A stretch of 52,499 nucleotides of DNA from Gammaproteobacteria bacterium (GCA_031370545.1 JANMQQ010000036.1:1-52499); one strand, 5' to 3'. Shown: positions 171 to 45,459, counted from the stretch's first letter. Numbers and translations are program-made. The notes: generated by a model from the letters alone, not told the origin.

Positions 171-2315
171 CTATCGTGTAGCAGTGAACACGACTAAGGC
201 ACTCGGCTTTGCGCCAGTAGGAATATTGCCAGCTTCTTTTAGCATGCCGCTGGCTGAATCAATCGAGTAAATGGAAACGGTATTGGAACCTTCGTTCGTA
301 ACATACACAAAGCGTCCAGAGCCTTCCACCGAAATCGCCACAGGTGCTGCGCCTGACTTGACTTGCCCTACTCGTGTGAAGCGACTTTGTGCAGTATCGG
401 CATAGTAAACAGTAATGTCATTGGAACCCTTGTTGGCCACATACACATAATGCCCGCCGGGGTGCACCGCAACGGCGGTGGGGGATGTCCCTGCTGGAAA
501 TGGCGAACCAGGCACCGCTTTGACTTCACCATTAAAAATATTGATTGAATAAACACCTAATGCGTTAATGCTGCCATGCGCTAAGTAAAGAAATTTACCA
601 CGCGGATCGGCAGCAAGTGCAACGGGATTCTTTGCGACTTCAAAAAAGATCCGGTCTTGACTTATTTCATCAGCCATCGGCCCGGCGCTGTAATAGCGGT
701 AAACGAATACTCTGCTGTCGGTCGCATCCACAACATAGCTAAACCGAGATGCCGGGTGCAGCAAAACGCTGCGTGGCTCAACACCCGCTGGACGCGGAAA
801 GACAATTGCCGGCTGATCGACTTGCGTCAGCTCCCGCAACGTCCCAGTTGTACTATCCACGACAAAGATCGACATGGCATGTTCAGCGGTATTCGCGACG
901 TACGCATAGTGGTCGTTGTAATCGAGCGCGAGTGAACGCGGATCGTTACGCGTTTTAATTGGCGAGCTCGGAATTTCTTTAGGAATTCCCGTTGTAGGAT
1001 CAACCTGGTAAGCCGAAATCGTATTAGATCCGGCATTAGTTACGTACACATATCGGCCGGTTGTGTTAACGCTCACTGATGTAGGATTGATGCCGGTAGG
1101 CCGGGTCGCCACAGCTTTCAAACTACCATTCTCTGCATCAATGCGATATGCAGTCAGTGTGTTATCGTCGGCGTTGGTGACGTAAATCGACTGAGGCTGA
1201 AACTCTACCGGCTTATCGCCCGAAACTATCGCCATTGCACGGGGGCCTGGTCTTGACCAAGTGGTTTCGAGCGCGTTTAATGCGCCGGTTCCCGAATCAA
1301 CTGCATAGGTCGTGATGTCATGCGAATCGTAGTTGGGGCTGAAGGCAAATTGCCCGGAAGGTTCCATTACTAATGTGGCTGGAAGTTTGCCTATGGCCGC
1401 GAAGGGCGATCCGACAATAGCCGTCAACCCTCCGTCGGCGATGTTTACGTTGAACCCCATGACGCCGCCAAAAAAATCGGTTGCGTAAAGGTGTCTTCCC
1501 TTCGAGTCGAGACGGATACCGAAGGGAAACACTTTGGAGCCAAGAGCGAACTCATTCTGACGCTGCAAAACTCCCGTTACAGAATCAATGGCGTAGGTGA
1601 GGATGCTTTTGGTATTCCAACTCGTCAAAAATGCGAATTTGCCACTGGGGTGAATATCAATAAATTGGGGCGCATCGCCTGCCGCATAGGGGGAGCCGGG
1701 CAGATTGGTTAGTGTGCCTGTGAGCGGGTCGATGCGATAACCCGATACATTGTCATCCATAATATTCGTCATATAGACAAATTGTCCCGAAGGCGCGACA
1801 GCCACCGAGCGCGGCATCTTGCCACCGGGGAAGGGCGCACCTTTAACCGGAGTGAGCTCGCCAGTCTGGGCGTTAATCGCCATTGCGCCAATGTTTAGGG
1901 AGTTGCGACCCGCCAGATACAAGTACTTTCCTGCTGGGTCCGTGGCCATCCAAAACGGTGAGCTAATCTTAGGATTGTAAGGTGACCCCGGCAGTGGGGT
2001 TAAACGCCCAGTCATTGAATCAACCGCAAATCCAGACACTCTCATCGACGTTTGCTGCGAAACGTAAACGAATTTTCCAGACGGGTGCGTCACGACGGAT
2101 GAGGGGAATTTCCCAACAGGGACATGCCCGTTGTGGCGCAGTTGACCAGATCTGTTATCAACGATAAAACCAGAGAGGGTGTTGTCGTACGAATTCACGA
2201 CGTAAGCGAAGCGCGGCACTTCCGATCCGGCCGGTAAGGCGGCTGTGCTGGCAATAACGACCACCGCAATTCGCATCAACCTTAACATGCCGTCACGACC
2301 ACGCCGCTCAATCAT
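171..2315 (-). CDS. Secreted tandem 7-bladed beta-propeller protein (lactonase / YVTN-repeat family)
   Basis: 714-aa ORF with a signal-like segment MLRLMRIAVVVIASTAALPAG. It has about 14 repeats of the type GRYVYVTNAGSNTISAYQVD / GRFVYVTNEGSNTVSIYSID / GKFVYVSQQTSMRVSGFAVD, typical of lactonase-type propellers, which implies two propellers. It begins 15 nt after the cytochrome stop, so it is the last gene of the operon. Confidence 0.8.
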   Translation of the reverse strand: MIERRGRDGMLRLMRIAVVVIASTAALPAGSEVPRFAYVVNSYDNTLSGFIVDNRSGQLRHNGHVPVGKFPSSVVTHPSGKFVYVSQQTSMRVSGFAVDSMTGRLTPLPGSPYNPKISSPFWMATDPAGKYLYLAGRNSLNIGAMAINAQTGELTPVKGAPFPGGKMPRSVAVAPSGQFVYMTNIMDDNVSGYRIDPLTGTLTNLPGSPYAAGDAPQFIDIHPSGKFAFLTSWNTKSILTYAIDSVTGVLQRQNEFALGSKVFPFGIRLDSKGRHLYATDFFGGVMGFNVNIADGGLTAIVGSPFAAIGKLPATLVMEPSGQFAFSPNYDSHDITTYAVDSGTGALNALETTWSRPGPRAMAIVSGDKPVEFQPQSIYVTNADDNTLTAYRIDAENGSLKAVATRPTGINPTSVSVNTTGRYVYVTNAGSNTISAYQVDPTTGIPKEIPSSPIKTRNDPRSLALDYNDHYAYVANTAEHAMSIFVVDSTTGTLRELTQVDQPAIVFPRPAGVEPRSVLLHPASRFSYVVDATDSRVFVYRYYSAGPMADEISQDRIFFEVAKNPVALAADPRGKFLYLAHGSINALGVYSINIFNGEVKAVPGSPFPAGTSPTAVAVHPGGHYVYVANKGSNDITVYYADTAQSRFTRVGQVKSGAAPVAISVEGSGRFVYVTNEGSNTVSIYSIDSASGMLKEAGNIPTGAKPSALVVFTATR

Positions 2316-2330
2316 GAAGCTTAGACTTGG

Positions 2331-5138
2331 CTATGGGACCTGTATGCAAGCTTCACTACTCATGGCCATCCAAAACATACCGTCTTCACCATTCCCGGGC
2401 GGACCAGCGGAACCACAGTTTGTATCTTGCCACTGCCCGCTAGCACCAAAACTCCGCACTTTTAATGCAGCTCGGTTGTAGTAGGGCCCAGCAAGAAAGC
2501 CATTTGTTGTCTGTATCCGAACCTGCCCGCGCTCCGCAGTTGCGGTGTTCTCAGCGCCGACGTCATTCAGATTTACTAGAAATACTTTATTCTTCCAGCC
2601 ATGAGGTACGGCGACGTGACATAAATTACACCGAAAGGTATCAACCGCATTGGCGTGAAAAAGGTGCAAATTAACACCCATTGCACCCATGGCCATGCCA
2701 CCACCCATAGCTCCTCCGCCCATTCCCATGCACATCATCCCACCACCACCTCCACCACCCATTCCACCACCACCCATTCCACCATTCGCCATGCCACCAA
2801 CACCGCCACCCATCATGCACATTCCCGCTCCACCCAATGCAAATCCGCTGTTTTGTGCAGCGGTTTGAGCTGTATCTGCATACTGACCATAGTCGTGACA
2901 CTTGAAACAAATGTGTGTTCGCACATCCGGATTACAGGGCGCCCTATTAGCTTGGCCGCACGCATCCTCGCCAGTGCCACCAATCAAATCACCAGACCAC
3001 TTACCCTTGAGGAGAAAATTATTGGACGAACCATGCGGCCCCCAAACATTGCCATTCTCCCCACCATCCGGAACAACCGTACCTGCCTGAGTATTAGATC
3101 CGTGACAGTCGGTACAGTACATTGTTTGCACGCCCACAAACCTAAATGGGACATTCCAGTTGCGAGCATCCGCATGGCGAGCGGTTGGATCACGGCCAGT
3201 GTCGCTACGCACTGGATGCCAACTGCGATGATTGTTGGATTGAAAATTTACTAAGCTGGTCGCTGGCCCTGTATTGGCAGGAGCAGGTCCGGACCCGCTA
3301 TCTTGGGTTGTTACAGGTTCACCGCGATGGTTTGCTGGCGAGTTGTACTCATTAGCTTGGTTGGTGTACTGGGTCATTTGATTTGTGCCTGGGGCTGTAC
3401 CGCCCCTAAAAGAACCCAACATCGGTGGTGTTGCCCCGTAGGCGTAATTCGAATGACACTTTAGGCAGACCTGATACTCGCGAGTTACGTAAGGTTGGCC
3501 TACATCAGTAGGACTATTTACAGTCGGATCGCCACGCTTGATAGTGAAGGTAATGTTGCCCTCTGGCAAAGCGTTAAAGTTGCTTGATCCATATGTGGGC
3601 TCGACGCCCCACATGCCTTTCAATACCCCGGACGCGAGATTATTGTGCTGAGTGCCCCCGGTCATGTCGTGTGTATGCGTGGGCCCTGCATCCGGAGTAT
3701 TAGGATTCGCGTTGAAGATTCGATTCCTGATCACTCGGTGCGGGTTGTGACAGTCGGTACACTCCACATGGCGGTTGTTAAGATTGCCGTATCCCAGATT
3801 AACTCGTGCCTCAATGAAATCTTTGCCCGCCTGTGTAACTGCGGTCTCAGTTCCGATGTTGTGCACCTCTGGCGTAGCGCTATTTAGATTGAAGCCATTT
3901 GCCTGATCAGTTGAGGTAATCGGCATGTGCGTGTTGCCGGGGGTCGTAAAGTCGGTTTTGATATCGGGTACTGGCGTATTTAATCCTTGAGCGTTGAGCG
4001 TGCCACCATCAGATGAATGGCAGGCAAAACACGTTTGTTCAATAGCTGGATTTCCACCCTGCTTGATCAAGTAGCCGCTAGCACTAATTTTAGTCGGACC
4101 ATCGGTGCCCTCACGCAACAGGCGTCGAGAGCCTTGCACGGTGTGAATGTCATGACATGCCAAACAGGCAGTTTCCCATACCTGCTTCCCCTGCGGAAAA
4201 TCACGTACTGCCGCTGCTGCCGTTGTATATGTCCCAGTTGCAACTTGGCTATTGGCATGAGCGGAGCCGACCCATCCCTGCTTATCGTGGCAGGCGAGAC
4301 AAATAATATCTCGTGCCGGATCAAAAGCCGTGGCGGTCGGCGCACTAAGCTGAAAACGCGACGCACGCAGGAATTTGATATTTTCATTATTGAGTACGTT
4401 ATTGTCACGAATGTGCGGGTCATGACAGGTATTACACTGCACCATGCCTTCTGTTGCTCCAGGTGTTTTAGGCTCTAAGGGCAGCAGCGGCTTAACTCCC
4501 CTTTTGCGCACCCCGACGTACTGCGAGGTGGCAGGATCCCTCATATCGCCATCTTTTAATGCCAACGCTGAGTTAAACGTGAGAGAAATGGGATGGTCAT
4601 TTCGTAGATTCGTGCCGATGAAGCGAGTAAAGCCGGTATCCGTTCCTTCGCCAGGTGCCATTACACCATTTGGACCCGTGCCCTGCATTGCGATATCCGC
4701 AGTCAGTGGGTTTTGGTCCGTGAATGCACCCGTGAGTACATTCACCGCACCAATCGCCATGGTCCCGTCGTGACACGACAGGCATAACTTTGAAATACCG
4801 CTGGGCTGATCTAACGGCACATCAGGGCCAGAAGTCGCGTCAATCGATCCCGAACGATAGGTGTCGTAAACAGCGCTTGATAGCTTGCGATTCCACAATG
4901 GGGCTTGGGCCGTCTCAGCTGCATGAGGGGTATGGCAGAACACACAGATTTGTTTTTCAGTCGTTGCCGAAACTACGCGACTAGCACCCCCGGCCAAGTT
5001 GGGGGTGATGGCTGAGGAAAAATTATGCTTGGTGTTACGAATGTCGGCGATGCGCGCAGCATAGGTCTGGCTTAAAGAGAGCAAGCTCAATGCCGCAAAA
5101 AGCGCAATTACAATGATTTTAAACCGTTTGGTCCCCAT
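2331..5138 (-). CDS. Secreted undecahaem c-type cytochrome (paired-CXXCH type) with internal Gly/Met-rich tract
   Basis: 935-aa ORF with signal peptide MGTKRFKIIVIALFAALSLLSLSQTYA. It has 11 CxxCH motifs (CVFCH, CLSCH, CNTCH, CLACH x2, CFACH, CTDCH x2, CLKCH, CFKCH, CNLCH). Several are in the CxxCHxPH form seen in Geobacter-type multihaem cytochromes. Confidence 0.9.
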   Translation of the reverse strand: MGTKRFKIIVIALFAALSLLSLSQTYAARIADIRNTKHNFSSAITPNLAGGASRVVSATTEKQICVFCHTPHAAETAQAPLWNRKLSSAVYDTYRSGSIDATSGPDVPLDQPSGISKLCLSCHDGTMAIGAVNVLTGAFTDQNPLTADIAMQGTGPNGVMAPGEGTDTGFTRFIGTNLRNDHPISLTFNSALALKDGDMRDPATSQYVGVRKRGVKPLLPLEPKTPGATEGMVQCNTCHDPHIRDNNVLNNENIKFLRASRFQLSAPTATAFDPARDIICLACHDKQGWVGSAHANSQVATGTYTTAAAAVRDFPQGKQVWETACLACHDIHTVQGSRRLLREGTDGPTKISASGYLIKQGGNPAIEQTCFACHSSDGGTLNAQGLNTPVPDIKTDFTTPGNTHMPITSTDQANGFNLNSATPEVHNIGTETAVTQAGKDFIEARVNLGYGNLNNRHVECTDCHNPHRVIRNRIFNANPNTPDAGPTHTHDMTGGTQHNNLASGVLKGMWGVEPTYGSSNFNALPEGNITFTIKRGDPTVNSPTDVGQPYVTREYQVCLKCHSNYAYGATPPMLGSFRGGTAPGTNQMTQYTNQANEYNSPANHRGEPVTTQDSGSGPAPANTGPATSLVNFQSNNHRSWHPVRSDTGRDPTARHADARNWNVPFRFVGVQTMYCTDCHGSNTQAGTVVPDGGENGNVWGPHGSSNNFLLKGKWSGDLIGGTGEDACGQANRAPCNPDVRTHICFKCHDYGQYADTAQTAAQNSGFALGGAGMCMMGGGVGGMANGGMGGGGMGGGGGGGMMCMGMGGGAMGGGMAMGAMGVNLHLFHANAVDTFRCNLCHVAVPHGWKNKVFLVNLNDVGAENTATAERGQVRIQTTNGFLAGPYYNRAALKVRSFGASGQWQDTNCGSAGPPGNGEDGMFWMAMSSEACIQVP
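2676..2834 (-). repeat. Low-complexity coding tract: 53 codons of Gly/Met (30 G, 14 M, 5 A, 2 C, 1 V, 1 N) inside the undecahaem cytochrome
   Basis: It translates as GGAGMCMMGGGVGGMANGGMGGGGMGGGGGGGMMCMGMGGGAMGGGMAMGAMG, between haem motifs 10 (CFKCH) and 11 (CNLCH). On the plus strand it appears as runs of ccacc/cat. Confidence 0.9.
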
Positions 5139-5250: not shown

Positions 5251-6297
5251 TCACTTCGATAAACCACCAATATATTCGAGAATCACTACGCGGCTATTGA
5301 ACATATCGGCAACATAGACGCGACCCCTAGCGTCAGACCAAACACCCGATGGCAAATAGAACTCCCCGATTTCAGATCCCGTACCACCGATAGGCAATAG
5401 TAACTGACCATCTGGCGAATATACTAACAAATGATCGTAATACGATTCTATAACGTAGACGCGACCCGCCCGATCAACAGAAATCCCTTTAGGCCGCGGC
5501 AGGTCACCAACATTCAACCCGCGTCGACCAAACTTAAGCACGTACTTACCTTCGGGAGTGAGCACCTGTATCCGCGAGTTGAGAGTATCCGTCACATACA
5601 ATTTGTTGTTAGCGAAGGCCAGGAAAGTTGGAAAGTTGAATTCCCCGATCCCTTCGCCCCGTTGACCGATGACCTCGCGTAACTTGCCTTCATCATCGAA
5701 GACTTTGATGTTGTGTGCGTGGGTATCAGAGACGTAAATTCGGCCTGTTTTTGGGTCACGCGCAATCCCGGTAGGTCGCTTGAGTATGCCATCGCCAAAA
5801 GATCCTAGTGGCTCACCATTGGGTCCAAGCCGAATAACCTCGGCTAAATCGGCATCCGCGACCAGCAGTTGGCCGTTCGCACCTGCTACGATTCCTGACG
5901 GAGTAGCAAATTTACGCGATTGCCCGGCGTCGTCCCAAAACAATAGCTGACCCTTCGGTTCATCAAATACAAATATGCCTCGACGCCCAACATCGGTGAT
6001 GTATACCCGTCCGCGTGCATCGTCGACCACTCCCGACTGAGGTCGCTGCAACATCAACCGATCCGGTTCCGAACTGGCCAGCCCAACCAACCAGCGCAAG
6101 ATTTTTTCAAACCTGCCGCCTTCTTCCTTGAAAATATTGTCTTCCCCGGTGAACTGGCCCACGTAGCGGTACCGCGCCATTTCGGGCTGTTGCGGCCAAA
6201 CTCTGCTTTCACCCGTCGCTTCATAGCGCAAAAATGATTTGGTCTCACCGCAGGCGACAAGTGTTGTCAATAAAAAAATAATTGCTAGAACGCGCAT
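5251..6297 (-). CDS. NHL-repeat six-bladed beta-propeller lipoprotein
   Basis: 348-aa ORF with lipobox MRVLAIIFLLTTLVAC|G. It has six NHL-like blades: GRVYITDVGRRGIFVFD, GQLLVADADLAEVIRLG, GRIYVSDTHAHNIKVFD, NKLYVTDTLNSRIQVLT, GRVYVIESYYDHLLVYS, GRVYVADMFNSRVVILE. Confidence 0.85.
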   Translation of the reverse strand: MRVLAIIFLLTTLVACGETKSFLRYEATGESRVWPQQPEMARYRYVGQFTGEDNIFKEEGGRFEKILRWLVGLASSEPDRLMLQRPQSGVVDDARGRVYITDVGRRGIFVFDEPKGQLLFWDDAGQSRKFATPSGIVAGANGQLLVADADLAEVIRLGPNGEPLGSFGDGILKRPTGIARDPKTGRIYVSDTHAHNIKVFDDEGKLREVIGQRGEGIGEFNFPTFLAFANNKLYVTDTLNSRIQVLTPEGKYVLKFGRRGLNVGDLPRPKGISVDRAGRVYVIESYYDHLLVYSPDGQLLLPIGGTGSEIGEFYLPSGVWSDARGRVYVADMFNSRVVILEYIGGLSK

Positions 6298-6315
6298 GTA
6301 TTCTGGGTGGTTGCC

Positions 6316-7422
6316 TTACTGCACGATGATCGGGAGAGCGTCGTTGTTGTCAGTTACAACACGAAACGCTTGAACACGGCGATTCATGCTGTCCGCAACA
6401 TACAATATGTTTTGATCTGATAGCCACATGCCGGTGATCTGTCTGAACCGACCGGGGGCGTAACCAGTGCCGCCGATGGTCGCAACGAGCCGGATGTCGT
6501 CAAATATCTTGATAGTATTGTCGGAGCGATCACTCACGAAAATGCGATTGCGCTTATCAACTATGATGGCCGTAGGCCAAATAATTTGTCCGCGCGCGAT
6601 TGAAAATCGAAACGCCCCAGTATTGATATCAATTTCCTGGAGCGGCAACTCCAGTCGATCAGCAACAAAAAGGGTATCTTTACCCTTTGCGATAGCAGTA
6701 ATTGCGCGAAATTTACCAGGACCTTGGCCCCGTGAACCGATTGCAGACATGGCTTGGCCAGTTTTGCTGAAGATCACAATATGGCTATAGCTACCATCGG
6801 CGACATATATCTGTCCGCGCACCTCATCCACGACAACATCAACGGGCCGCGCCAAATTAGCCGCATCGGCAAAACGGCGAACGAAATTTCCATTGGCATC
6901 AAAATAAAGCACTTGTTTACCGACCGGATCAGCGACGTAAAAACTAAGATCCGATTCGACTGCCATGCCTGCAGGGTCGCCGACGAATTGGCTACCCGCC
7001 AGCGCCAAACTTTGAATCGCTTTTGTGGTGAGGTTATAGCGATAAATCGCGCGCGTGCCCGCATCAACGATCAACATCTGGTCTTTTACACCGCCTACTG
7101 CAACTGGAGTTAAAAATGTTACGGTGTTCCCCGCGCCCACTATGATGCGCGCGAATTCGCCCACTGCACCGCTCGCCATCTCTTGTCGACCACCGGTAAT
7201 GGGCTCCATCGCAACCAAAACTTCGGGATCCCCCGGACGTGTGTAACTGGTGAGCGGACTGACTGGCCGAGTGGTCGGCGCGGCTTTTTCCGGTGCCGTT
7301 ACCGATGATTTCAATTCAGCAACGCTGCAACTTGCAAGCATGATAATGCCCAGCACCGGTGTAAGTGCTCGCCAAGTCGGAGCGTGATTATCTCGGAGGG
7401 GTGCGATGATCGGGCAGCGCAT
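6316..7422 (-). CDS. NHL-repeat six-bladed beta-propeller lipoprotein (paralogous module)
   Basis: 368-aa ORF with probable lipobox ...VLGIIMLASC|S. Six blades are visible: DQMLIVDAGTRAIYRYN, LSFYVADPVGKQVLYFD, GQIYVADGSYSHIVIFS, DTLFVADRLELPLQEID, NRIFVSDRSDNTIKIFD, NILYVADSMNRRVQAFR. The exact start is uncertain. Confidence 0.8.
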   Translation of the reverse strand: MRCPIIAPLRDNHAPTWRALTPVLGIIMLASCSVAELKSSVTAPEKAAPTTRPVSPLTSYTRPGDPEVLVAMEPITGGRQEMASGAVGEFARIIVGAGNTVTFLTPVAVGGVKDQMLIVDAGTRAIYRYNLTTKAIQSLALAGSQFVGDPAGMAVESDLSFYVADPVGKQVLYFDANGNFVRRFADAANLARPVDVVVDEVRGQIYVADGSYSHIVIFSKTGQAMSAIGSRGQGPGKFRAITAIAKGKDTLFVADRLELPLQEIDINTGAFRFSIARGQIIWPTAIIVDKRNRIFVSDRSDNTIKIFDDIRLVATIGGTGYAPGRFRQITGMWLSDQNILYVADSMNRRVQAFRVVTDNNDALPIIVQ

Positions 7423-7474: not shown

Positions 7475-8035
7475 TTACCGCAACCCTACATTGTCGCGAG
7501 GAACGCTGTGGCAGCGATTGCATTCCAGCGGCGGGAACGCCACTTTGCCATGGCAAACCCCGCAAAACTCGCCTTCAATAATGGCCGCCATAGTTACAAA
7601 ATTTCCACCGCGTTGAGGCAGGAAAATTTCTGGATGGCAGTTTTTACACGTTAACCATTTTGTATGAGGTAAATGGGGAAACCGCACATACGGCATCGAT
7701 GCGGTGTTTTTGAAAATCACATCGAAATCGACCGAGTGCATCTTCTCTGTCCCTGACAGCCCGGTTCGCGGATTAACCATGCCTTTGTCGAGCGTGTCTA
7801 CCCAATTAATGACGCCACGCTGATCGCGCGGGAAGTTCGCCATAGCTTCGGAAGGGGGTTGTAAAATCCTAACCGCGTCATTGGTCGCATCGTGAATTCC
7901 ATCCTCGGCAATTGGAACAACATGTCCGTTCAATTGAAAATGTCCGGCACCTTCATCGGCCACCGCAGGCACGGCCAGCATACCCAACACTAATGCAACA
8001 CGCACACCACTCGGCACTGAACCACGCATAGTCAT
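7475..8035 (-). CDS. Periplasmic c7-type trihaem cytochrome (paralogue C)
   Basis: 186-aa ORF with signal MTMRGSVPSGVRVALVLGMLAVPAVA. It has three CxxCH motifs (CKNCH, CGVCH, CNRCH) in the c7 pattern VRFPHLPH..C..CH...M...G.FCGVCHGKVAF...C..CH. Confidence 0.85.
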   Translation of the reverse strand: MTMRGSVPSGVRVALVLGMLAVPAVADEGAGHFQLNGHVVPIAEDGIHDATNDAVRILQPPSEAMANFPRDQRGVINWVDTLDKGMVNPRTGLSGTEKMHSVDFDVIFKNTASMPYVRFPHLPHTKWLTCKNCHPEIFLPQRGGNFVTMAAIIEGEFCGVCHGKVAFPPLECNRCHSVPRDNVGLR

Positions 8036-8052: not shown

Positions 8053-9660
8053 CTACTGACTGACTCCGGCCAACCGCAAAGCACGCTGAATTTCCTCTGT
8101 TGCCGCTAACATCAGACTAATCGCTTCGGGATAGTTTCCAGCCTTGGCTTTTCCATCCGCTTCAGTTTTGCGCGCCCGTCCCTTCACTACATAAGTATCC
8201 ATTAATTTCACCACCGCCTCAGCAGGTTTCTTTTCTTCAAGTGCAACCGGAATCAACTCCTCATAACTTATGAACCGTTTACGTTCATATTCGTATTCAT
8301 CCGCAGGTGACTCGAAATTTAAATCATAGACGATGGTTTGGGCATTAAGCATCGCCTGGATCGCCTGCGTAACCAAGCGCTCGGCTTTAACAAGCAATTG
8401 TGTTGCCTTTTCGTGCTGCCCCTTATCACTCAGCGCATGGGCATCGCTGGCCAAGCCATCGACTTTGACGTGATCATAATCTACTGCCGCTGCAGCGCCA
8501 CGCTTCTTCACTGTGCGCTCAAAACTCCGTTTGTGCGAGTCCTGGAAATTCTTCAGGGTGTCTAACGCTTCGACGTAACGTCCACGTTGAAGCTTGGCCG
8601 CTTCTTCATTCGAAGTCGAACGCGTTGCGGCGGTGACAAGCTTTAACGCCTCTTCGGCGAGGGCCAGCGCTTGACTATTATGCCCATTGCCCAATTCTTG
8701 ACGTGCGGCTTGCACCTTACTAGTCGCACTGGAAAGAGCACTTTTTGCAGATTCGTTATCCCCTTCGGCTACCGCTTTGGTGGATTTTGACTGCAACATT
8801 AATTCAGCCAGCATGAGTTTCTGCTTGGCCGTATCACTAACATTGACTCTGGGGCCACTGGAAATTCCGGCGGCAACCTCCGGCGTATCTGCGATGCTTG
8901 TGGCCAATAACCGATTAATTTCAGCGCTCGATGCTGTCTTGTTCACTACCGCAACTTTGCCACCCATCGAGCTGTGATTACGGCATTGGTAATAAACAAT
9001 GTCAGGCGTGCTTTCCGTTGGCGACACTACGATAAGACCGCGGTAGGTAAACTGACCCTTTATTCCTTCGGTCACCGTTCCGCCACCCCATCCCATCGGA
9101 CTGGTCGAAAAATAGACGTCATGGAGCGGATTGGTTTGTACATCAAATTCGTAAACTTCCCCGCGCTTCAAAACCACAGACTTGCCTGGAACATTGTCGA
9201 GCAGGAAACCCAAATGATGCCCTTTGCCAAAATTGGGGTGCGCAGGTGTTTTCTCAGCCACAGTAATCACAAAATGATTCGGCCCCTTTTTAGGGATCGG
9301 AGTAGGCGTTGGAAAGAGCGTTGCGGTCGGAACCGGAGCGACTAAGGGCGACGCAACAGGAACCTTAGTTATTAAGGGTGGGGGGGCAACCACCGCCGCA
9401 GGCTTCATCTCGACCGCAGGCGGGTTGGGATCGACGACCACCGGTTCGGGCGCCTTTTGTGCAACCGATTTCTCCGCCACACCGGTTTTATCGACGGATG
9501 TTGATCCAGGGGCTTCCTGCTTCTGCTGTGTGACTGGGGGAGATTCAGGAGTTACTTGCGCAGCGGCAGCTTCCTTCTTGGTCGTCGCTGGGGTACCGCA
9601 GCCCGCGATGAATCCCACAACTATCGCTGCCAATAATAAAGTATTGCTGGCTCGACGCAT
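8053..9660 (-). CDS. Lipoprotein with cupredoxin (type-1 blue copper) domain and long helical C-terminal domain
   Basis: Lipobox MRRASNTLLLAAIVVGFIAGC|G. I prefer the start at 9660 (AAGGTG 8 nt upstream) over the ORF-track start at 9681. A roughly 110-aa Pro/Ala/Val linker follows, then a cupredoxin-like core with His in NPLHDVYF (9121-9123) and YYQCRNHSSMGGKVAVVN (Cys-x2-His-x2-Met, 8965-8985). The last roughly 290 aa are Ala/Lys/Glu-rich and helical. Confidence 0.75.
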   Translation of the reverse strand: MRRASNTLLLAAIVVGFIAGCGTPATTKKEAAAAQVTPESPPVTQQKQEAPGSTSVDKTGVAEKSVAQKAPEPVVVDPNPPAVEMKPAAVVAPPPLITKVPVASPLVAPVPTATLFPTPTPIPKKGPNHFVITVAEKTPAHPNFGKGHHLGFLLDNVPGKSVVLKRGEVYEFDVQTNPLHDVYFSTSPMGWGGGTVTEGIKGQFTYRGLIVVSPTESTPDIVYYQCRNHSSMGGKVAVVNKTASSAEINRLLATSIADTPEVAAGISSGPRVNVSDTAKQKLMLAELMLQSKSTKAVAEGDNESAKSALSSATSKVQAARQELGNGHNSQALALAEEALKLVTAATRSTSNEEAAKLQRGRYVEALDTLKNFQDSHKRSFERTVKKRGAAAAVDYDHVKVDGLASDAHALSDKGQHEKATQLLVKAERLVTQAIQAMLNAQTIVYDLNFESPADEYEYERKRFISYEELIPVALEEKKPAEAVVKLMDTYVVKGRARKTEADGKAKAGNYPEAISLMLAATEEIQRALRLAGVSQ

Positions 9661-9801
9661 TGATTCACACCTTCGACGCATGATTGATATGAAATTTATA
9701 ATCGAGCAATTCCTCCCCTGCGATGAGCAAATTCACAATCGTATGCTCATAACGCAGACGGGTGCGCGAACGCACCCGTACTGACTCCTAATCTTAGGAA
9801 A

Positions 9802-10479
9802 TTAGCGCCACGGATTTTTTACGCTCGCGGAACTGAGCGGCGGCTTCCAGTCATCCGGCTTTGGTTTGGAATGGCATTTTTTGCAGGACAGCGTGGTGAT
9901 TGGAAATGATACCTTGCCGTGGCATACGCCGCATTTTTGTCCGAGCAATATCGCCGACATATTGATCTGGTTTGCGCCCTTCTGCGGAATAAAAATCTTC
10001 GGATGGCAATTGGAACAATGCAACCATTGCGTATGCGGCTTATGCGGAAAAACGACGTCGGGCATGGACGCCTTGACTTCCCGAACGATATCTAAATCCA
10101 TCACGAGCGCTTCGACACTGGGATCAACACGATCATAGCGAGGATTCAGAAAGCCTTTTTGCAGCGCCTGCACCCAGTCGACATAGTTGCCGAACTCTGT
10201 TGTGGGCAACCCCTCGTAAGAAACCAACGGGGGCTGCAACACATGACTACCTTCGTTATCCGGATCATGGATACCGTCTTCCGGAGGCGGAGCGTTCCTT
10301 TGCTTGGGCTTCTTCAACAAACGATTAAACACATTCGCGGTACTAACTTTATTTGCGTCCGAATCAACTTCCTTTAACTCCATAGATTTCTTGGTCGCTT
10401 GCGTTTCAGCTGCCACTGCACCTGCGGCAGGCACCGTTGCAGCTATCAGTATCACTATCGTTTTAACAATGCTGTTCAT
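9802..10479 (-). CDS. Periplasmic c7-type trihaem cytochrome (paralogue B)
   Basis: 225-aa ORF with signal MNSIVKTIVILIAATVPAAGAVA. It has CSNCH, CGVCH and CKKCH in the same c7 pattern (VVFPHKPH..). It shares the N-terminal EDGIHD...LQPP...W[VD]..L.KG..NPR module with the 7475-8035 product. Confidence 0.85.
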   Translation of the reverse strand: MNSIVKTIVILIAATVPAAGAVAAETQATKKSMELKEVDSDANKVSTANVFNRLLKKPKQRNAPPPEDGIHDPDNEGSHVLQPPLVSYEGLPTTEFGNYVDWVQALQKGFLNPRYDRVDPSVEALVMDLDIVREVKASMPDVVFPHKPHTQWLHCSNCHPKIFIPQKGANQINMSAILLGQKCGVCHGKVSFPITTLSCKKCHSKPKPDDWKPPLSSASVKNPWR

Positions 10480-10518
10480 GACATTTTCCTTCCCCGAATT
10501 CTATTTTCTGCCGAACCA

Positions 10519-10995
10519 CTATTTAGCGGGCTTCGCGTCGCTCTTATCCGCAGGTTTATCCTGCGCATCAGCAGGCTTGCTGTCTTGTAACGACTTATAC
10601 GCAGGGGCCACCAAACGTTGCACGGTGCTGCCGTGAATTTGCGTCGGCGTGCCGGGGATACCGGAATGGCACATCCCGCAGTTTTCTACGGACCAGGAAA
10701 TCTCACCGTTATGGCAAGCACCACAGAATTGCCCGTCGATAATTTTGGCCATGGTGATTTTGTTACCACCCGCCTTGAACTGAAAGCCCAGATCAGCGTG
10801 GCACACTTTGCAGCGAAACCGAATGCGATGATACCAATGCGGAAACACCACTGGCCGCATGCCGGCAGCATCGGCATAATTATTAATGACAACATCCGCG
10901 TACTCGGCTTGCGCCGAGACAGGCACAAACAATCCAGCGACGCCCGCAAACACCGCCAGCGCCAACCACCACTCCTTAGTCTTTTTGATATTCAT
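10519..10995 (-). CDS. Periplasmic c7-type trihaem cytochrome (paralogue A, short form)
   Basis: I moved the start to ATG 10995 (MNIKKTKEWWLALAVFAGVAGLFVPVSAQA, with GGAGAGAG upstream). It has CKVCH, CGACH and CGMCH with VVFPHWYH. The C-terminal tail is Lys/Asp/Ala/Pro-rich. Confidence 0.85.
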   Translation of the reverse strand: MNIKKTKEWWLALAVFAGVAGLFVPVSAQAEYADVVINNYADAAGMRPVVFPHWYHRIRFRCKVCHADLGFQFKAGGNKITMAKIIDGQFCGACHNGEISWSVENCGMCHSGIPGTPTQIHGSTVQRLVAPAYKSLQDSKPADAQDKPADKSDAKPAK

Positions 10996-11058
10996 AGCCA
11001 CTCTCTCTCCCCGAAAAAACACTCTTAGTATGTGAAAGCGCACCGATAGTACAACAGC

Positions 11059-12963
11059 TCAAAAACTTCGTACAGCCTGGAAAGTCATCGAATATGCGCG
11101 TTGCCCAGGGCCAGCGTCGGTTACGCGTGCAGCTAAATTTAATGCTAGCAGACCAATCCGATACGAGAGCGAGTTATCCCAGTCCTTTGAGGCTGTGGAC
11201 TGAGTACGCTCGTCTTTCAATAATGTGGGTACCGATAATCGGGAATTAAATAACAAGCCGTGTACACCTAAAAAACGGCTATGAACATAGCCAAAATTAG
11301 CGGAAGCTGCCTTGCTGGTTTTACCGATATCGTTGATCGGAGAATTATTCGTGTTGTCAGTAGCTTCCCTATCCGGTGTACTGGCACGGCTTGCCTGGAA
11401 ACTCACACTACCTGATAGACTGCTCAACCTTGACAATTCTTGATTTCGCGCCAGTTGCGCACTCAAGACTTGAGACGCACTGGTTTGTCGCCCAAAGCTT
11501 CGCGAGTCAGATAACGATGTGCCAGCGCTAGTGCTCCCACCGAATCCGGAGTGATTCCACCCCAACGACATCGAACTTGAAAACGAACGACCTATATAGT
11601 CGGAATCACTGGACTTGGAACCTGACGCATTCTGCCCAAACGAAACGTTCATTCCAGCGTTGCGCCCCAAACTTATTGAACGTCCCAGTTGATGTGACGC
11701 ACTGACGCTAACGGAGCGCTGACTCTTTGTTTCCGTCACTGAAGCTCCGCTGCCTTCCACTGGGGTAGTTTCGCTACGACTCACACTGTTACTTACGCCA
11801 ACCCCGACATTCCAACCGTAGTCAAAACCGAAAATTCGATACTGGTCGGACGGAAGACTCGTTGAGAGTGACTGCGTGGAACTGACAGATTGACTACCTC
11901 CCGCATCAGCCACGCTCACACCCACGCCGCCGTTAACAATAAAGTTGTGCGCGAATTGGTAGGATGCGCTCGCATTTGTTGAAACACCTCGCGACGCCGC
12001 CCCGGACAACACCGTATAAATAAGGGCACCGCCACTAATATTGTAAGGTCGGTGTTCAGGTCGCCAGTAGAATGAACTTGATACTTGTTCATAAGCTGTG
12101 CGGAATGTTTCGGTACCCCCCCCGGTAGACGCTGCCCCGGAATAACTGGCGATGGAATTTACTCCCACTTCCCCCGAAGGGAAATAACTGTGGCTCAGCA
12201 AAAGGTTGGAGCTAGTACTTGTAATATCGGACTGCGCGGGATCGTTTTCGAAATACCCGCCCCCTAATCCAAAATCGTGGTACGGCACCCGTTTTCGAAT
12301 TTGAAACCCAAGTGATCGGTCGACTGAATTACCAGTTTGATAGCTCGCTGAACCCGTGTTGTGATCAAACCAAGCGTTTATATTGGTGCCATCTAATGTG
12401 TTGTAAGTTTGGCGGATATAAAATCGACGTGTCTGAGAGCTTTGTCCGTTTAACAACGCGCTGTTGCTGTCCTGCCGACTATCCGACTGCGCAAATCCAA
12501 AGTTAGTGGGAAACCGGCTCTCTGGAAACAAAGTAAGATCCACGCTGCCGCTCAGAGATTTTGAAGTAGCCTCAGAACTAACACTGCTGCCTGATCGACC
12601 TAGGCCCAGTCCAACACCCGCACCCATAGTTAAAAACCAAGGCTGCCAGAAGTATCCGCCACCGTTCAGACTTAGAGTTACATTTGACTGCTCTGATTCT
12701 GAATCAGCAATGCGCGAGTAACCGTAGCCATAACTCAAACTGCCGCCAAGGCCGGTGGGAATAAAATATTCCGCATGAACTTCGCTAGGCGAAGCGTATG
12801 AAAATAGCGCGACAACACCCGCAGTCACTAACGACCGAGCACGGGAAACATCCGTAGAGTAACGGCGCAATTGATGTGACAACAGCACTGAACCCCCGAC
12901 CCCTAGACCTACGTTACACGGACGACTGCGCGCTCGCGGGGAACCGAAGCGGCGCACCAGCAT
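11059..12963 (-). CDS. Large outer-membrane beta-barrel protein (putative porin component of the redox operon)
   Basis: 634-aa ORF that is very Ser/Gly/Tyr/Asn-rich with alternating patterns. It has no CxxCH and no long hydrophobic helix after the signal-like ...LVTAGVVALFSYASPSEVHA. The C-terminus YSMTFQAVRSF ends in Phe, like an OMP beta-signal. The true start may be the GTG at 12888. Confidence 0.6.
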   Translation of the reverse strand: MLVRRFGSPRARSRPCNVGLGVGGSVLLSHQLRRYSTDVSRARSLVTAGVVALFSYASPSEVHAEYFIPTGLGGSLSYGYGYSRIADSESEQSNVTLSLNGGGYFWQPWFLTMGAGVGLGLGRSGSSVSSEATSKSLSGSVDLTLFPESRFPTNFGFAQSDSRQDSNSALLNGQSSQTRRFYIRQTYNTLDGTNINAWFDHNTGSASYQTGNSVDRSLGFQIRKRVPYHDFGLGGGYFENDPAQSDITSTSSNLLLSHSYFPSGEVGVNSIASYSGAASTGGGTETFRTAYEQVSSSFYWRPEHRPYNISGGALIYTVLSGAASRGVSTNASASYQFAHNFIVNGGVGVSVADAGGSQSVSSTQSLSTSLPSDQYRIFGFDYGWNVGVGVSNSVSRSETTPVEGSGASVTETKSQRSVSVSASHQLGRSISLGRNAGMNVSFGQNASGSKSSDSDYIGRSFSSSMSLGWNHSGFGGSTSAGTSLSDSRSFGRQTSASQVLSAQLARNQELSRLSSLSGSVSFQASRASTPDREATDNTNNSPINDIGKTSKAASANFGYVHSRFLGVHGLLFNSRLSVPTLLKDERTQSTASKDWDNSLSYRIGLLALNLAARVTDAGPGQRAYSMTFQAVRSF

Positions 12964-13107: not shown

Positions 13108-14616
13108 TCAGACAACTTGTTGCGGACGCATTCGAGCAACAAACAAAATCATCATCATCATGAATAACAGTGGCGCGATGAGTGCTACGTTTCCAAATCG
13201 CGCATAGGGCGTCGCACCCTGCATCGGCTGCACGTTCGCACGCAACACAACCGCTTCGAATTGCGGAGCTTGTGCTATTGAACGACCGCGATGATCAATC
13301 ACCGCAGTCACTCCAGTATTGGTGGCGCGCAACATCGGTCGTTGTGTTTCTATGGAACGCATACGTGCAATCTGCAAGTGTTGATGTGGCGCCATTGAAT
13401 TACCAAACCACGCGTCGTTACTCGTATTGATCAGCACGGCAGCGCTCGGCAAGGCGTTGATGACTTCCTCGCCGAAGGCATCTTCGTAGCAAATCGACAC
13501 GCCCATTGCGTACCCTGCGAGCTTTACAACTGGAGAACTGGGCTGAGTACTGAAGTCAGGCAGTGGCACCTGCATGAATTCCATCAGCCCACCGAGCATC
13601 GCGGCGAACGGAATGTACTCACCAAAAGGGACCAGGTGTTGTTTTGAATAAATCTGCTCGGGACCACCCACACTCACCATGCTGTTGTAGTACTGCTGGG
13701 TACGCGCGTTCATCACCGGCATACCAATAAACACATCGGTTCCGGCATTGCGCGCCTCTTCACCCAACTTAGTCAGAAATTCCTGCGCTTGATGGTAGAA
13801 CACCGGTAACGCGGTTTCCGGCCAGATGATCAAGTCGCTGCCCCAGTTCAGTCGTGTGTTCTCGACGTACCAGTCGATGGTGGGTTGACGTTGCTCCGGC
13901 TGCCATTTGATATCTTGCGAAACATTGCCCTGCAGCAGCGCTACCTTGATTGGCGCGCCCGCAGGCGTCGCCCATTCAATTGACGCTAAAGCCGCTATGC
14001 CCACGGTCAGCACCACAACACTGGGCAACACAACTTTCAATACATTGGCGCGCTGCGCAAATGCGATTAGCGCCGCCAAAAAACTCACCGCCCACGAAAC
14101 GCCGTAGACACCCAAGATTGGCGCGATGCCAGCCAGCGGAGAATCCACCTGGCTATATCCGACAGCCAACCAGGGAAAACCGGTAAATATCCAGCCCCGG
14201 CACCATTCACCCAGCGTCCACAACGCAGATACTGCCAGCGCGTTACTCCACAACGCTGCGGGCTGTCGAAAATAGCGCACTAATAGCCATCCGCTGACGG
14301 CCGGAAACAACGCCAGGAATAGCACAAATGCCAATGTCAACAACGCGCCCACCGGCGCCGACACGCCACCGAAATCATGCATGCTGACGTAGACCCAACT
14401 AACACCGACGCCGAACATTCCGACGCCAAACAAGAAGCCGCTCCGAAACGCTTCGCGCGTAGACGCGTGGCGCCACACAAAAAACAACGCGGCGAGACTC
14501 ATAAAAATAAGCGGGTAAAAATCGAAGGGGGCAAACGCCAACGGAACGATTAATCCCGCTGCGGTTGCCAGAGCATAACGTCGTTGTGACGTTGACAGCA
14601 GGGTGTCGAGATTCAC
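13108..14616 (-). CDS. lnt: Apolipoprotein N-acyltransferase
   Basis: 502-aa ORF with a multi-TM N-terminal half, then a CN-hydrolase domain (WPETA..., ...GVSICYEDAF...). It lies in the conserved position after corC. Confidence 0.9.
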   Translation of the reverse strand: MNLDTLLSTSQRRYALATAAGLIVPLAFAPFDFYPLIFMSLAALFFVWRHASTREAFRSGFLFGVGMFGVGVSWVYVSMHDFGGVSAPVGALLTLAFVLFLALFPAVSGWLLVRYFRQPAALWSNALAVSALWTLGEWCRGWIFTGFPWLAVGYSQVDSPLAGIAPILGVYGVSWAVSFLAALIAFAQRANVLKVVLPSVVVLTVGIAALASIEWATPAGAPIKVALLQGNVSQDIKWQPEQRQPTIDWYVENTRLNWGSDLIIWPETALPVFYHQAQEFLTKLGEEARNAGTDVFIGMPVMNARTQQYYNSMVSVGGPEQIYSKQHLVPFGEYIPFAAMLGGLMEFMQVPLPDFSTQPSSPVVKLAGYAMGVSICYEDAFGEEVINALPSAAVLINTSNDAWFGNSMAPHQHLQIARMRSIETQRPMLRATNTGVTAVIDHRGRSIAQAPQFEAVVLRANVQPMQGATPYARFGNVALIAPLLFMMMMILFVARMRPQQVV

Positions 14617-43988: not shown

Positions 43989-44854
43989 TCAATCCGGCTT
44001 TGTTGCCGCCGCCTGTAACAAGGGCCAACACTGCTTGCGCAGTTCGTCGAGCACATCCGCAAGCGGCGGCGCGGTGAGTCCACTGCGCGTGAGAAATGCC
44101 TGCCATAGGGTCTGTCGACTCACAGCGAAATCAGGCGCAAGCCCGGCAGGTAGCGTGGCCGGCAATGCGGTTTGCCGCCGTGCGAACGTTGCACGAATCG
44201 CAGCCGGTAACACTGTGTGGTCAATATTTTCGTAGCGCATCAACACCCACAGATCGAAATAGTCTTTGACGCGTGAATTGAATCCGGCCAGCTTCACCAT
44301 CGCCTCCAGTTTTTCCCCACGACAGTCTCCAGTGGATACACTGCCAACACCGGTGTCGGCATATCGAGCAAAGTTGGATAAGCGTGTTGCGATGGAGCCG
44401 GTGTGACTGCATCTCCAAAACCAATGTCGCATTGCACGGGAATACGTGCGCCGTCGAGTGTCGCCGTCATGCTGACTCGCACGCCGGGGTATCCGGCCTC
44501 TTTCCGAATCTCCACCGCGCGCACCGAATCGGTGTTGAAGACCAACCCGTCATCCGCCGTCATATCCAAGGAAACAATCTGGCGAAACACTGCGGCACAG
44601 TGTTCGGGGTCGGCCTCGCCGAAGCCTAGAAAATCAGCATCGCGTGTCGGCCGCTGCGTGAGATCAAACCACAAACGAAACAACAGAGCGCCCTTGAGTA
44701 CGAAGCGTTCGCGATGGACCGACTGCGCTAACCGATAAAGTAGGCGTTCCAACGCATAGTTGACCAGCATCTGTTGGAAATCTTCGTGGCGTTCGCGCGC
44801 CAGGTTGAGCAAGCGTTGCCGGATCGAGGCTGCACTATTGGCCTTTCCCGTCAT
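43989..44854 (-). pseudogene. abiEii: AbiEii/AbiGii-family nucleotidyltransferase toxin, disrupted by a 1-nt frameshift
   Basis: ORF 44294..44854 (..RPTRDADFLGFG.., ..YPLETVVGKNWRRW*) and ORF 43989..44432 (..GEKLEAMVKLAGFNSRVKDYFDLW..) are the two halves of one AbiEii protein. Adding one G to the G4 run (C4 on the plus strand, 44315-44318) restores ..ETVVGEKLEAMV... Confidence 0.8.
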
Positions 44855-45459
44855 GCCACCAGGGCCTCAACATACGGCCGCAGCACCGCCTGAACGCGAC
44901 ACACACGCGCCATTTTGTCGAGCTCATCCAGCGTAAAACATCGCTGTTGCCAGCCTTCGCGCAGCGCCTCAATGGCGACATCAAGACCAATGTGATTACG
45001 GAACTTGAAACAGTCCGCCACCGTTTTCGCCATTGAATACACCCGCACCGTTCCGCCCGCGCGTTTATGTTTCTCGATACTGGCGGTATAGGCCGCGCCG
45101 GAAAAATGCACGATGCGCAACGGCGGATAGTCCTCGAGTTTGTGCCACGCGCTTTTGGGCAGCGCTAGCCACACCACGGACGGCGATTGAGTGGTGATCT
45201 CATGAAACGCCAATGCCGAGAGCAGGCACAGAACTCCTTGTGGATAGCGGTGCATCACCTGTACCCAACTATCGCTGGCGTCCCGAACCGTTGCGAGTTG
45301 ATAAACGCCTCGGCGCACACGCACGATGCGCCTCTGATCAACCAGCTCCGCCAGCGTGCGAAACAGCACCGGCCGCGACAGGCCCAGGCGCTCGAAATCC
45401 GCTACCTCTGCATTGCCCCGCTTGGTGATGTATTTGAGTATAGCGTCTGACCCGGCCAT
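44851..45459 (-). CDS. abiEi: AbiEi-family type IV toxin-antitoxin antitoxin / transcriptional regulator
   Basis: 202-aa ORF with an N-terminal wHTH (..LSRPVLFRTLAELVDQRRIVRVRRGVYQL). It overlaps the abiEii start by 4 nt, the typical abiEi-abiEii arrangement. Confidence 0.75.
   Translation of the reverse strand: MAGSDAILKYITKRGNAEVADFERLGLSRPVLFRTLAELVDQRRIVRVRRGVYQLATVRDASDSWVQVMHRYPQGVLCLLSALAFHEITTQSPSVVWLALPKSAWHKLEDYPPLRIVHFSGAAYTASIEKHKRAGGTVRVYSMAKTVADCFKFRNHIGLDVAIEALREGWQQRCFTLDELDKMARVCRVQAVLRPYVEALVA

Follow-up and report, generated by a model that had tools for sequence, protein, structure and literature searches.

Introduction

The gene cluster uetABCDEFGHIJ ("undecaheme electron transfer") has been defined for "Ca. 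Tenderia electrophaga", where UetJ is predicted to act outside the cell as a haem wire that takes up electrons, UetF is called a cupredoxin and ccsAB are listed after uetJ (bioRxiv 10.1101/2022.05.06.490989). Here, we analyse the UetJ-type cytochrome encoded in a 52,499-nucleotide stretch of DNA from a gammaproteobacterium (GCA_031370545.1, JANMQQ010000036.1:1-52499; the whole stretch is referred to as the window), which carries a 53-residue tract dominated by Gly and Met between its last two haem motifs. We tentatively interpret this tract as a lineage-specific, disordered and probably disulfide-closed flexible loop for contacts (a "contact brush") that would neither belong to the haem wire nor offer a metal site of defined stoichiometry.

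Judged by haem count, homology and synteny, the host cytochrome is the UetJ orthologue. It shares 46-47 % identity over residues 1-914 (tblastn) with UetJ relatives in metagenome-assembled genomes (MAGs) of 'Ca. Tenderia sp.' (loci L017-L019; not Ca. T. electrophaga itself). An N-terminal signal-like sequence is present, and the 120 closest homologues likewise all carry 11 CXXCH motifs; Pfam and NCBIfam recognize only generic multihaem domains in the protein. The genes of the cluster in the window, all on the minus strand, follow the order UetC-D-E-F-G-H-I-J, an order shared by the loci of the closest orthologues (L001, L002). An extracellular location and a role in electron uptake are predicted for UetJ. 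The initial annotation of the window, made from the DNA sequence, had described an undecahaem cytochrome that was ordinary but for the tract; the protein is identifiable as the UetJ of the Uet electron-uptake cluster.

The Gly/Met tract of UetJ

The tract, translated from the minus strand, occupies residues 769-821 of the 935-residue open reading frame with its 11 CXXCH motifs and consists of 30 Gly, 14 Met, 5 Ala, 2 Cys, 1 Val and 1 Asn. The initial annotation had counted the first four correctly, Val and Asn being the remaining two residues, and it had also rightly placed the tract in frame between haem motif 10 (C744) and haem motif 11 (C837) and the Cys in mirrored contexts, C774 in M-C-M-M and C803 in M-M-C-M. 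Gly accounts for 57 % of the tract, and His, Asp and Glu are all lacking. Such a composition cannot be chance: Gly and Met make up 44 of the 53 residues compared with a fraction of 0.117 in the remaining protein (binomial tail 1.4e-32), and in 2000 shuffles of the whole protein the maximum in any 53-residue window was 21. A six-frame scan of the 52.5-kb window found no second Gly/Met tract of this type.

On the plus strand, the DNA of the tract is an imperfect CCN/CAT repeat, in which Tandem Repeats Finder detects a period of 3 (79 % matches); no word longer than 18 nt is repeated exactly. GGT is the codon for 17 of the 30 Gly of the tract versus 24 of 88 in the rest of the gene, and this bias, together with a perfect duplication of a 15-nt unit (Table 1), is consistent with slippage in codon units. 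The codons are heterogeneous, unlike those of a young pure repeat.

The linker between haems 10 and 11 across the family

The linker that hosts the tract has a shared frame, CFKCH ... (N/D)SGF ... variable stretch ... N-L-H-x-F-H ... FRCNLCH. Within the SGF motif, the residues corresponding to S748 and G749 of homologue P0028 are invariant in alignment A2. N823, H825 and H828 are invariant in 120 sequences, and because the NLHxFH motif is kept even in homologues without Cys or tract, its His are taken to be haem ligands, probably the distal ones.

The variable stretch itself differs widely. At 75 species-level loci, the linker contains no Cys in 49 cases (31-50 residues between the motifs), one in 15 and two in 11; the Tenderia species belong to the one-Cys group, with a 55-residue linker that includes GGGSCLAVPD and holds no Gly/Met tract. 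Since most species-level loci lack Cys or tract, the latter is, by this comparison, not part of the core haem wire. Two linker Cys are present in 97 of the 120 closest proteins, and their spacing in 96 two-Cys homologues forms a series of 1 (11 proteins), 2 (12), 3 (45, the mode), 6 (14) and 13-48 (14) residues, with 28 in the window protein and 38 and 48 in its closest relatives. From this series, the long tract is seen as an expansion of a small, Met-flanked Cys-x(1-3)-Cys turn such as G-M-C-G-M-G-C-M-G-G-M-G-G, which is a trait of one gammaproteobacterial subfamily and has grown to Cys-x(13-48)-Cys in the window's clade. The alignment of orthologues, which the initial annotation had proposed, showed that close orthologues keep the composition of the tract and vary in its length (59 and 69 residues), the MCMM border being identical in P0002, P0003, P0009, P0010 and P0012 and in cluster members of differing spacer length.

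According to a tree built from the non-loop columns, the expansions do not go back to one single event. They lie between both Cys in the window's clade, outside the Cys in the C-x6-C clade, before SGF and after haem 11 in another clade, and only after haem 11 in the C-x1-C clade. In the 120 proteins, 56 Gly-rich tracts surround the Cys pair, 32 follow haem 11, 14 precede SGF, and only 2 lie at other places. Separate tracts of a given protein mostly combine Gly with the same partner residue, which in most proteins is Met; P0026 has Trp in both of its tracts, P0047 has Phe in both, the one scored tract of P0011 has Phe as well, and P0007 has Trp and one Phe. The linkers of these four Trp/Phe proteins (P0007, P0011, P0026 and P0047) are devoid of Met and keep a CxxC pair; in P0092-type relatives, the tracts consist of Gly and Cys only.

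Two observations concern broken genes of the family. A Gly/Trp-type UetJ is split into products of 693 and 187 residues (P0131/P0134, on an ENA contig of 4489 nt), the frame apparently being lost near NNW...PF, about 70 residues upstream of the Gly tract, which is thus not the cause. A frameshift in the tract is also an unlikely origin of the NCBI "pseudogene" call on Tenderia UetJ, since the UetJ genes retrieved from Tenderia spp. are tract-less.

Length variation and constraint on composition

In clusters of proteins at 90 % identity, all differences in linker length fall inside the tract and comprise whole codons. P0003 and P0123, for example, are 99.2 % identical over 499 flanking residues without any gap in the flanks and have loops that differ by 2 residues, and P0005, P0128 and P0129, likewise without flank gaps, differ in loop length (41, 40 and 43 residues); the borders of the loop, MCMM and MMCM, remain fixed across the length variants. 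Thus, both the length polymorphism looked for among near-identical proteins and the expansion or contraction by slippage that the initial annotation had anticipated found support, since in-frame indels confined to the tract, in proteins of 99 % identity outside it, are what slippage would produce. Yet, the five sequences of cluster 6 are of equal length at 93-99 % identity, and the tract is therefore best regarded, as far as sequence comparison can tell, as an indel hot spot and not as a hypermutable switch. A phase-variable contingency locus was rejected, as the repeat is imperfect (79 %; best perfect repeat 15 nt x 2.2) and only whole-codon variants occur.

The composition varies far less than the length. 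All spacers of at least six residues, pooled (407 residues), contain 64.9 % Gly, 27.0 % Met, 5.4 % Ala and 2.7 % other residues, i.e. 97 % Gly, Met and Ala together. Amino acids that a single nucleotide change in a Gly codon would give account for 27 residues, of which Ala makes up 22 and charged residues 2, compared with about half expected to be charged if all were equally accepted; Ile and Leu, the commonest one-step neighbours of Met, do not occur in the pooled spacers. In the 96 two-Cys homologues, Met precedes the second Cys in 60 % and follows the first in 49 %, and spacings between Met residues are mostly 1-5 residues. The composition of the tract looks selected, or at least filtered; since the pooled sequences are phylogenetically non-independent, the filter is an indication and not a formal test.

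These data bear on the possibility that the tract is a neutral by-product, i.e. a low-complexity expansion tolerated in a surface loop, which would have arisen by slippage of a GGN-GGN-ATG seed and whose composition would simply mirror the repeat unit. Most of the family, including Tenderia, does without the tract, its length is unconstrained and polymorphic, the DNA has retained a repeat signature with the GGT bias, and the region is predicted to be disordered, all of which a neutral origin would explain. It accounts less well for tracts that last across a subfamily diverged to ~50 % identity and recur at three loops, in several clades and at different sub-sites, for the strong filtering of substitutions (Ala is tolerated, charged residues, Ile and Leu are almost absent), for the heterogeneous codons without a young pure repeat and for a partner residue largely common to separate tracts of one protein. 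We consider neutrality rather unlikely on balance.

Cysteine pairs and predicted structure

The AlphaFold2 model, computed from an alignment of 120 sequences, has a predicted template modelling score (pTM) of 0.79. In this structure prediction, a check that the initial annotation had proposed, the tract is modelled as disordered, with a predicted local distance difference test (pLDDT) of 32-48 for residues 771-816 compared with ~75-84 in the flanks; the minimal CX3C loop of the short-loop paralogue P0028 is below 50 as well. Sequence and fold searches of the PDB matched the N-terminal OmcE-like module only and provided no template for the C-terminal module that bears the tract. Residues 16-243 (window 4410-5093) also match a 16-chain "putative multiheme cytochrome c" entry (9yuq_N, E=6e-14), and the OmcE-like N-terminal module raises the question of head-to-tail stacking of UetJ. 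The alternative of a flexible tether between two cytochrome lobes, which had been put forward in the initial annotation, fits poorly: the tract is an excursion from a short linker, anchored by SGF and NLHxFH and bordered by a Cys pair, and for this reason a closed loop is favoured over a tether.

The total of non-haem Cys is even in 99 of the 120 proteins, the commonest pattern upstream of, within and downstream of the loop being 0/2/2 (84 proteins). In the window's clade, the comparison shows non-haem Cys to have been gained as pairs, and this, together with the even totals in an extracytoplasmic protein, suggests three consecutive disulfides, of which C774-C803 would close the loop.

Three other assignments of the loop Cys were rejected. 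A twelfth, non-canonical haem site (CXnCH, as in MccA) does not fit, since the second Cys is followed by Met (45 %), Gly (35 %), Leu, Ser or Phe and never by His. For a CuA-like site (C-x3-C...H...M), the nearby His is invariant even in Cys-free homologues and hence has another role. For an MxCxxC site as in HMA domains (GMxCxxC in a ferredoxin-like beta-alpha-beta-beta-alpha-beta fold), there is no HMA match in Pfam or NCBIfam, the spacing is 28 (1-48 in the family) and the region is predicted to be disordered.

A redox element was also considered: the Cys pair might be a redox-active disulfide or thiol switch, like the CX8C of MtrC/OmcA, or Met and Cys might serve as sacrificial antioxidants or hole-hopping relays that guard or gate the terminal haems. 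The pair is conserved in the subfamily at 5-25 residues upstream of the invariant NLHxFH, the side chains of Met, Cys and Trp are oxidisable, and strained redox-active disulfides typically have short spacings such as CXC, CXXC and CX3C. However, a spacing of 1-48 is hard to square with a tuned potential, the Phe variants are not redox-active, and there is no homology to domain III of MtrC, the sole Pfam MtrC-like match being in the haem region (residues 231-332); moreover, haems near Fe(II) or cathode potentials would presumably not readily reduce a disulfide. A redox element therefore appears improbable to us.

A possible flexible contact loop at the last haems

The reading that we prefer, if only tentatively, is that of a contact loop, which could have evolved and could function in the following manner: The loop would have grown by in-frame codon-repeat slippage from a Met-flanked Cys-x(1-3)-Cys turn between SGF and NLHxFH, in the C-terminal module with haems 10 and 11. 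C774 and C803 would mark its base, most likely as the disulfide that closes it. Its length may drift freely, while its composition would be held to Gly spacers, sparse Met "stickers" and little Ala, without charge, Ile or Leu. In the folded protein, the three hot spots are inferred to lie near each other where the haem chain ends, with haems 10 and 11 terminal; together with the equivalent Gly/Met, Gly/Trp and Gly/Phe tracts at the two neighbouring loops, the loop may thus form a flexible, uncharged and polarisable brush around the last haems. Such a brush might make adaptive, low-specificity contacts with a partner, candidates being the propeller encoded downstream, another cytochrome nearby, or an electron donor in the form of a solid or a soft metal.

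Gene context marks the downstream propeller as a candidate. A lactonase-type propeller is encoded directly after UetJ at 9 of 13 two-Cys loci, at none of 46 no-Cys loci and at none of 15 one-Cys loci. All nine propeller-bearing loci belong to the window's subfamily, and the other four two-Cys loci encode distant proteins of the CC or CxxC type. Besides the window, such genes, for secreted proteins of ~700 residues, lie at L084 (4230-6368) and L085 (12900-14972 and 18055-20226). The UetJ-propeller pair is duplicated in L085, L084 encodes four UetJ paralogues with different loops, and in both L084 and L085 the first copy has the longest loop. Matches to the Lactonase family extend over the whole length of the window's protein, which probably comprises two propellers and is a candidate partner of this UetJ subfamily.

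Several points weigh against the contact loop. The disulfide, the closeness of the loop sites and the position of the haems at the chain end are all inferred. The compositional purity could in part stem from rapid repeat turnover rather than from selection, and the pooled spacers, as stated, are not phylogenetically independent; in the same way, the association of propeller and UetJ is confounded by phylogeny, both traits marking one subclade. That Met is never replaced by Ile or Leu and flanks both Cys suits a thioether or soft-metal role equally well. Finally, the loop has only one Cys in 19 of the 120 homologues, and the Cys total is odd in 18 of them, so that a free thiol appears to be tolerated at this site, which fits a purely structural disulfide poorly; the thiol may even be used. 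Most single-loop-Cys homologues carry NLHxGH instead of NLHxFH (a call made by inspection), which hints at a free thiol shortly upstream of the motif presumed to ligate haem in this class. The class comprises L017-L019 (Ca. Tenderia spp.), P0071, P0072, P0082 and similar proteins.

A possible soft-metal site as the alternative

In the alternative that the initial annotation had found attractive, the tract is a soft-metal site, in which Cys thiolates and Met thioethers would bind Cu(I) or a further thiophilic ion, for example Ag(I), for sensing, for buffering or for a redox relay by the terminal haems, possibly linked to UetF. The ligand chemistry is right, with two Cys in MCMM/MMCM and 14 Met. 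Met is kept specifically and enriched beside both Cys, its spacings are dominated by 1-5 residues, and MxM and MxxM motifs are typical of Met-rich copper segments. The single free Cys of 19 homologues suggests that a functional thiol is possible, and two thiolates with thioethers would suit Cu(I) well if the Cys were reduced.

The paired Cys of extracytoplasmic proteins are usually oxidised, however, and the tract lacks the His, Asp and Glu that would be expected. The Met count ranges from 0 to 15 and the loop length varies widely, which leaves no fixed geometry, and the linkers of P0007, P0011, P0026 and P0047 have Trp or Phe in their Gly tracts in place of Met, those of P0092-type proteins Gly and Cys only. 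No cop, cus, cue, pco-like or other copper-homeostasis gene, nor ccsBA, is among the window's open reading frames that were scanned.

The cupredoxin in the same operon, to which the initial annotation had appealed, holds in part. UetF keeps the four residues of its His-Cys-His-Met motif (Table 1) in 3 orthologues, down to 48 % identity, but has no Pfam cupredoxin match and no significant PDB sequence match; the motif is compatible with the published cupredoxin assignment, its copper status coming from the motif and that paper. As UetF also occurs in the tract-less uet cluster of "Ca. Tenderia electrophaga", it does not discriminate between the hypotheses.

We thus regard the soft-metal site as unlikely, though second to the contact loop, because close relatives swap Met for Trp or Phe while keeping the Gly-spacer pattern, and because the number and spacing of Met are free. 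An exchange of this kind is better explained by a physical property common to these residues than by ligation through thioethers.

A bolder and more doubtful reading would see a low-complexity tip of the "sticker-and-spacer" kind around haems 10 and 11, made up of the Gly/Met, Gly/Trp and Gly/Phe tracts and giving the cytochrome a new capability, with the Cys pair as a redox- or metal-sensitive clasp. The tip might mediate multivalent self-association or docking to the co-duplicated propeller, by which UetJ would be knitted into a conductive surface layer, or, in Met/Cys-rich proteins, it might capture a thiophilic metal or a metal-sulfide surface at the electron-entry haem. In either form, a haem wire would contain a disordered domain with a function of its own, a case not described in the literature searched.

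Support from independent assemblies

Regions of low complexity on a metagenome contig of low coverage may be misassembled, and the tract or its length might thus be an artefact. A Logan contig of the best-matching public run (X1) matches positions 2331-2781 exactly and ends inside the tract, and positions 2782-3040 are without contig coverage at ~7x depth; no RNA-seq run containing the stretch was found. Read support, which the initial annotation had made a touchstone of the tract, is thus present for the part from 2676 to 2781, which an independent contig matches exactly, and missing for the rest. An artefact is nevertheless highly improbable, because the reading frame and the conserved motifs on either side are intact, the longest exact repeat (18 nt) and the perfect tandem (33 nt) are both well under the typical short-read length that we assume, and independently assembled orthologues hold tracts of 59 and 69 residues at the same place and with the same borders.

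The Uet cluster and its surroundings

The features of UetJ and of the genes of the cluster are collected in Table 1.

Table 1. Position and basis of assignment of the features of UetJ and the Uet cluster in the window.
Feature	Position	Strand	Basis
714-residue secreted lactonase-type beta-propeller protein, directly downstream of UetJ	171-2315	-	Pfam PF10282, 8 stretches, E=8e-81
UetJ orthologue, 935-residue secreted undecahaem c-type cytochrome, N-terminal ~240 residues OmcE-like	2331-5138	-	Open reading frame, 11 CXXCH, homology, synteny
C-terminal Cys pair C908...C931, presumed structural disulfide	2346-2417	-	C908 invariant, C931 >=90 % conserved
Haem motif 11 (CNLCH, residues 837-841)	2616-2630	-	Invariant
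NLHLFH motif (N823, H825, H828 invariant), C-terminal anchor	2655-2672	-	120-sequence alignment
Gly/Met tract, 53 residues (residues 769-821)	2676-2834	-	Translation; pLDDT <50 for 771-816
MMCM border (M801 M802 C803 M804), second Cys of presumed pair	2727-2738	-	Direct reading and homologues
Sole perfect tandem in the tract, 15-nt unit x 2.2 encoding G-M-G-G-G	2752-2784	.	Tandem Repeats Finder, 100 % matches, score 66
MCMM border (M773 C774 M775 M776), first Cys of presumed loop-closing pair	2811-2822	-	Direct reading
SGF motif (S764 G765 F766), N-terminal anchor of the variable loop	2841-2849	-	In nearly all homologues
Haem motif 10 (CFKCH, residues 744-748)	2895-2909	-	Invariant
Extra Cys pair C727...C735 (CX7C)	2934-2960	-	Window protein and two closest relatives only
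Two NHL beta-propellers, UetI (5251-6297) and UetH (6316-7422) positions	5251-7422	-	Pfam NHL, gene order
Trihaem c7-type cytochrome, UetG position	7475-8035	-	TIGR04257, E=1e-16
UetF-like 542-residue lipoprotein, His-Cys-His-Met type-1-copper-like motif (H187, C233, H236, M239)	8053-9681	-	Motif conservation
Trihaem c7-type cytochromes, UetE (9802-10479) and UetD (10519-11043) positions	9802-11043	-	TIGR04257
634-residue protein without family match, UetC (outer-membrane beta-barrel) position	11059-12963	-	Position and size as in L001, L002 and the published cluster

UetA and UetB, which are a tetrahaem protein and a PPIase in Tenderia, do not adjoin the UetC-size gene in the window. At this start of the cluster, the UetC-size gene adjoins lnt (13108-14616); in L002, a rotamase gene lies upstream of the UetC-size gene. 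UetF has a lipobox (IAGC) followed by a Pro/Ala/Val-rich low-complexity linker of ~90 residues (residues 40-130) and then the cupredoxin-like domain, a layout that suggests a tethered periplasmic copper protein. Its C-terminal ~280 residues are helical by eye and gave only non-significant PDB matches, to designed helical proteins. Past the propeller gene, L002 (15099-20430; the genome of P0010) encodes a HemN-like radical-SAM protein and four proteins of the FGE-sulfatase family; the equivalent region precedes the start of the window.

The remainder of the window holds housekeeping genes and two defence systems, namely an AbiEii/AbiEi-type toxin-antitoxin pair (44294-45459) and, beside it, an ABC-3C defence-like set (45589-49301; DUF3732, MC3 and CTD7 domain proteins). 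A 635-residue protein with cadherin, Big_9 and PD40 repeats (25014-26921), probably a surface protein, is flanked by stretches without long open reading frames (~23.8-25.0 kb and 27.1-28.6 kb).

Significance

UetJ relatives occur in at least 587 species-representative genomes of the Gamma-, Beta- and Alphaproteobacteria, Magnetococcales, Nitrospinota and Myxococcota, among them Gallionella, Rubrivivax, Sphaerotilus mobilis and Hydrogenophaga. In these iron-, sulfur- and cathode-oxidising lineages, the uncharacterised family is a candidate entry for electrons from minerals or electrodes. If a variable tip around the last two haems indeed decides what the wire contacts (partner protein, neighbouring cytochrome, mineral or soft metal), the specificity of the system would lie in this tip; this would also explain genomes with several UetJ paralogues that differ mainly in the loop, and the tract would exemplify what is rare among extracytoplasmic redox proteins of bacteria, a disordered region under selection for its composition. 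Even as a tolerated slippage product, it would be of value for annotation, as short-read assemblies of these genes break there.

The evolutionary behaviour of the tract is clear from the sequences. It is best classed as a low-complexity Gly/Met loop, be it functional or tolerated, that is set in a new host and bordered by a Cys clasp. Present evidence gives no basis for calling the tract a copper site, and it should not be annotated as one by default.

Comparison with known systems

The tract itself belongs to no defined family. A protein search with its 53 residues as the sole query scored none of 30 candidates, probably because the composition filters of HMMER reject such a sequence. The UetJ literature that was searched does not discuss the loop, the word "methionine" being absent from the main text of the Tenderiales preprint, and the literature found on Gly/Met tracts deals mainly with chaperones (GroEL tails, G/M regions of J-proteins) and not with a cytochrome.

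In Met-rich segments of the CopA/PcoA/CueO type, Met is accompanied by His, Asp or Glu, and in CusF, Trp also contacts the metal. The Met-rich Cu(I)/Ag(I) segments of CopA/PcoA/CueO, CusF, CopC and Ctr1 resemble the tract in having Met clusters at 1-5 spacing in an extracytoplasmic protein. Unlike them, the tract has no His, Asp or Glu, 57 % Gly, a free number of Met and a free length, Met-free relatives and no copper-resistance context: the host is a multihaem cytochrome and not a copper-dedicated protein, and UetF is a cupredoxin candidate of the electron-transfer type.

Like UetJ, the MtrC/OmcA/UndA-type cytochromes of the outer surface have a pair of Cys apart from their haem motifs, the conserved CX8C disulfide. 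They belong to another family and have another fold, a beta-barrel domain stands against a disordered loop, and the fixed spacing contrasts with one of 1-48.

The G/M and G/F regions of chaperones act as flexible hydrophobic contact elements. The (GGM)n tails of GroEL and the G/M and G/F regions of Sis1-type class-B J-proteins are, like the tract, disordered and Gly-rich with sparse Met or Phe, but they are cytoplasmic, C-terminal or interdomain and free of Cys, whereas the UetJ tract is internal, extracytoplasmic, bordered by Cys and non-homologous. As for a GroEL-type tail, composition alone is alike: the tract is internal (769-821 of 935) and its host is a cytochrome. No tract of the family lies at the extreme C-terminus, the nearest one, in P0054 (916-936 of 945), stopping 9 residues short. 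The coexistence of G/M and G/F versions is known from the chaperone J-protein literature (e.g. PMC11978752, PMC12571646).

OmcE of Geobacter sulfurreducens (7tfs) is homologous to the N-terminal ~240 residues of UetJ (E=3e-20 by sequence; Foldseek E=4.4e-5 with a template modelling score of 0.66, OmcE-normalised); unlike UetJ, it is a 4-haem subunit of ~200 residues without a counterpart of the tract-bearing C-terminal module.

The closest described system is Tenderia UetJ, with which the window protein shares the 11 CXXCH motifs, the signal peptide, 46-47 % identity (to the Tenderia sp. MAGs) and the gene order UetC-J. It differs from the window protein in its 55-residue one-Cys linker without Gly/Met tract, and the Tenderia cluster differs from that of the window in that UetA and UetB are present beside UetC and that ccsAB follow uetJ, where the window has the propeller gene.

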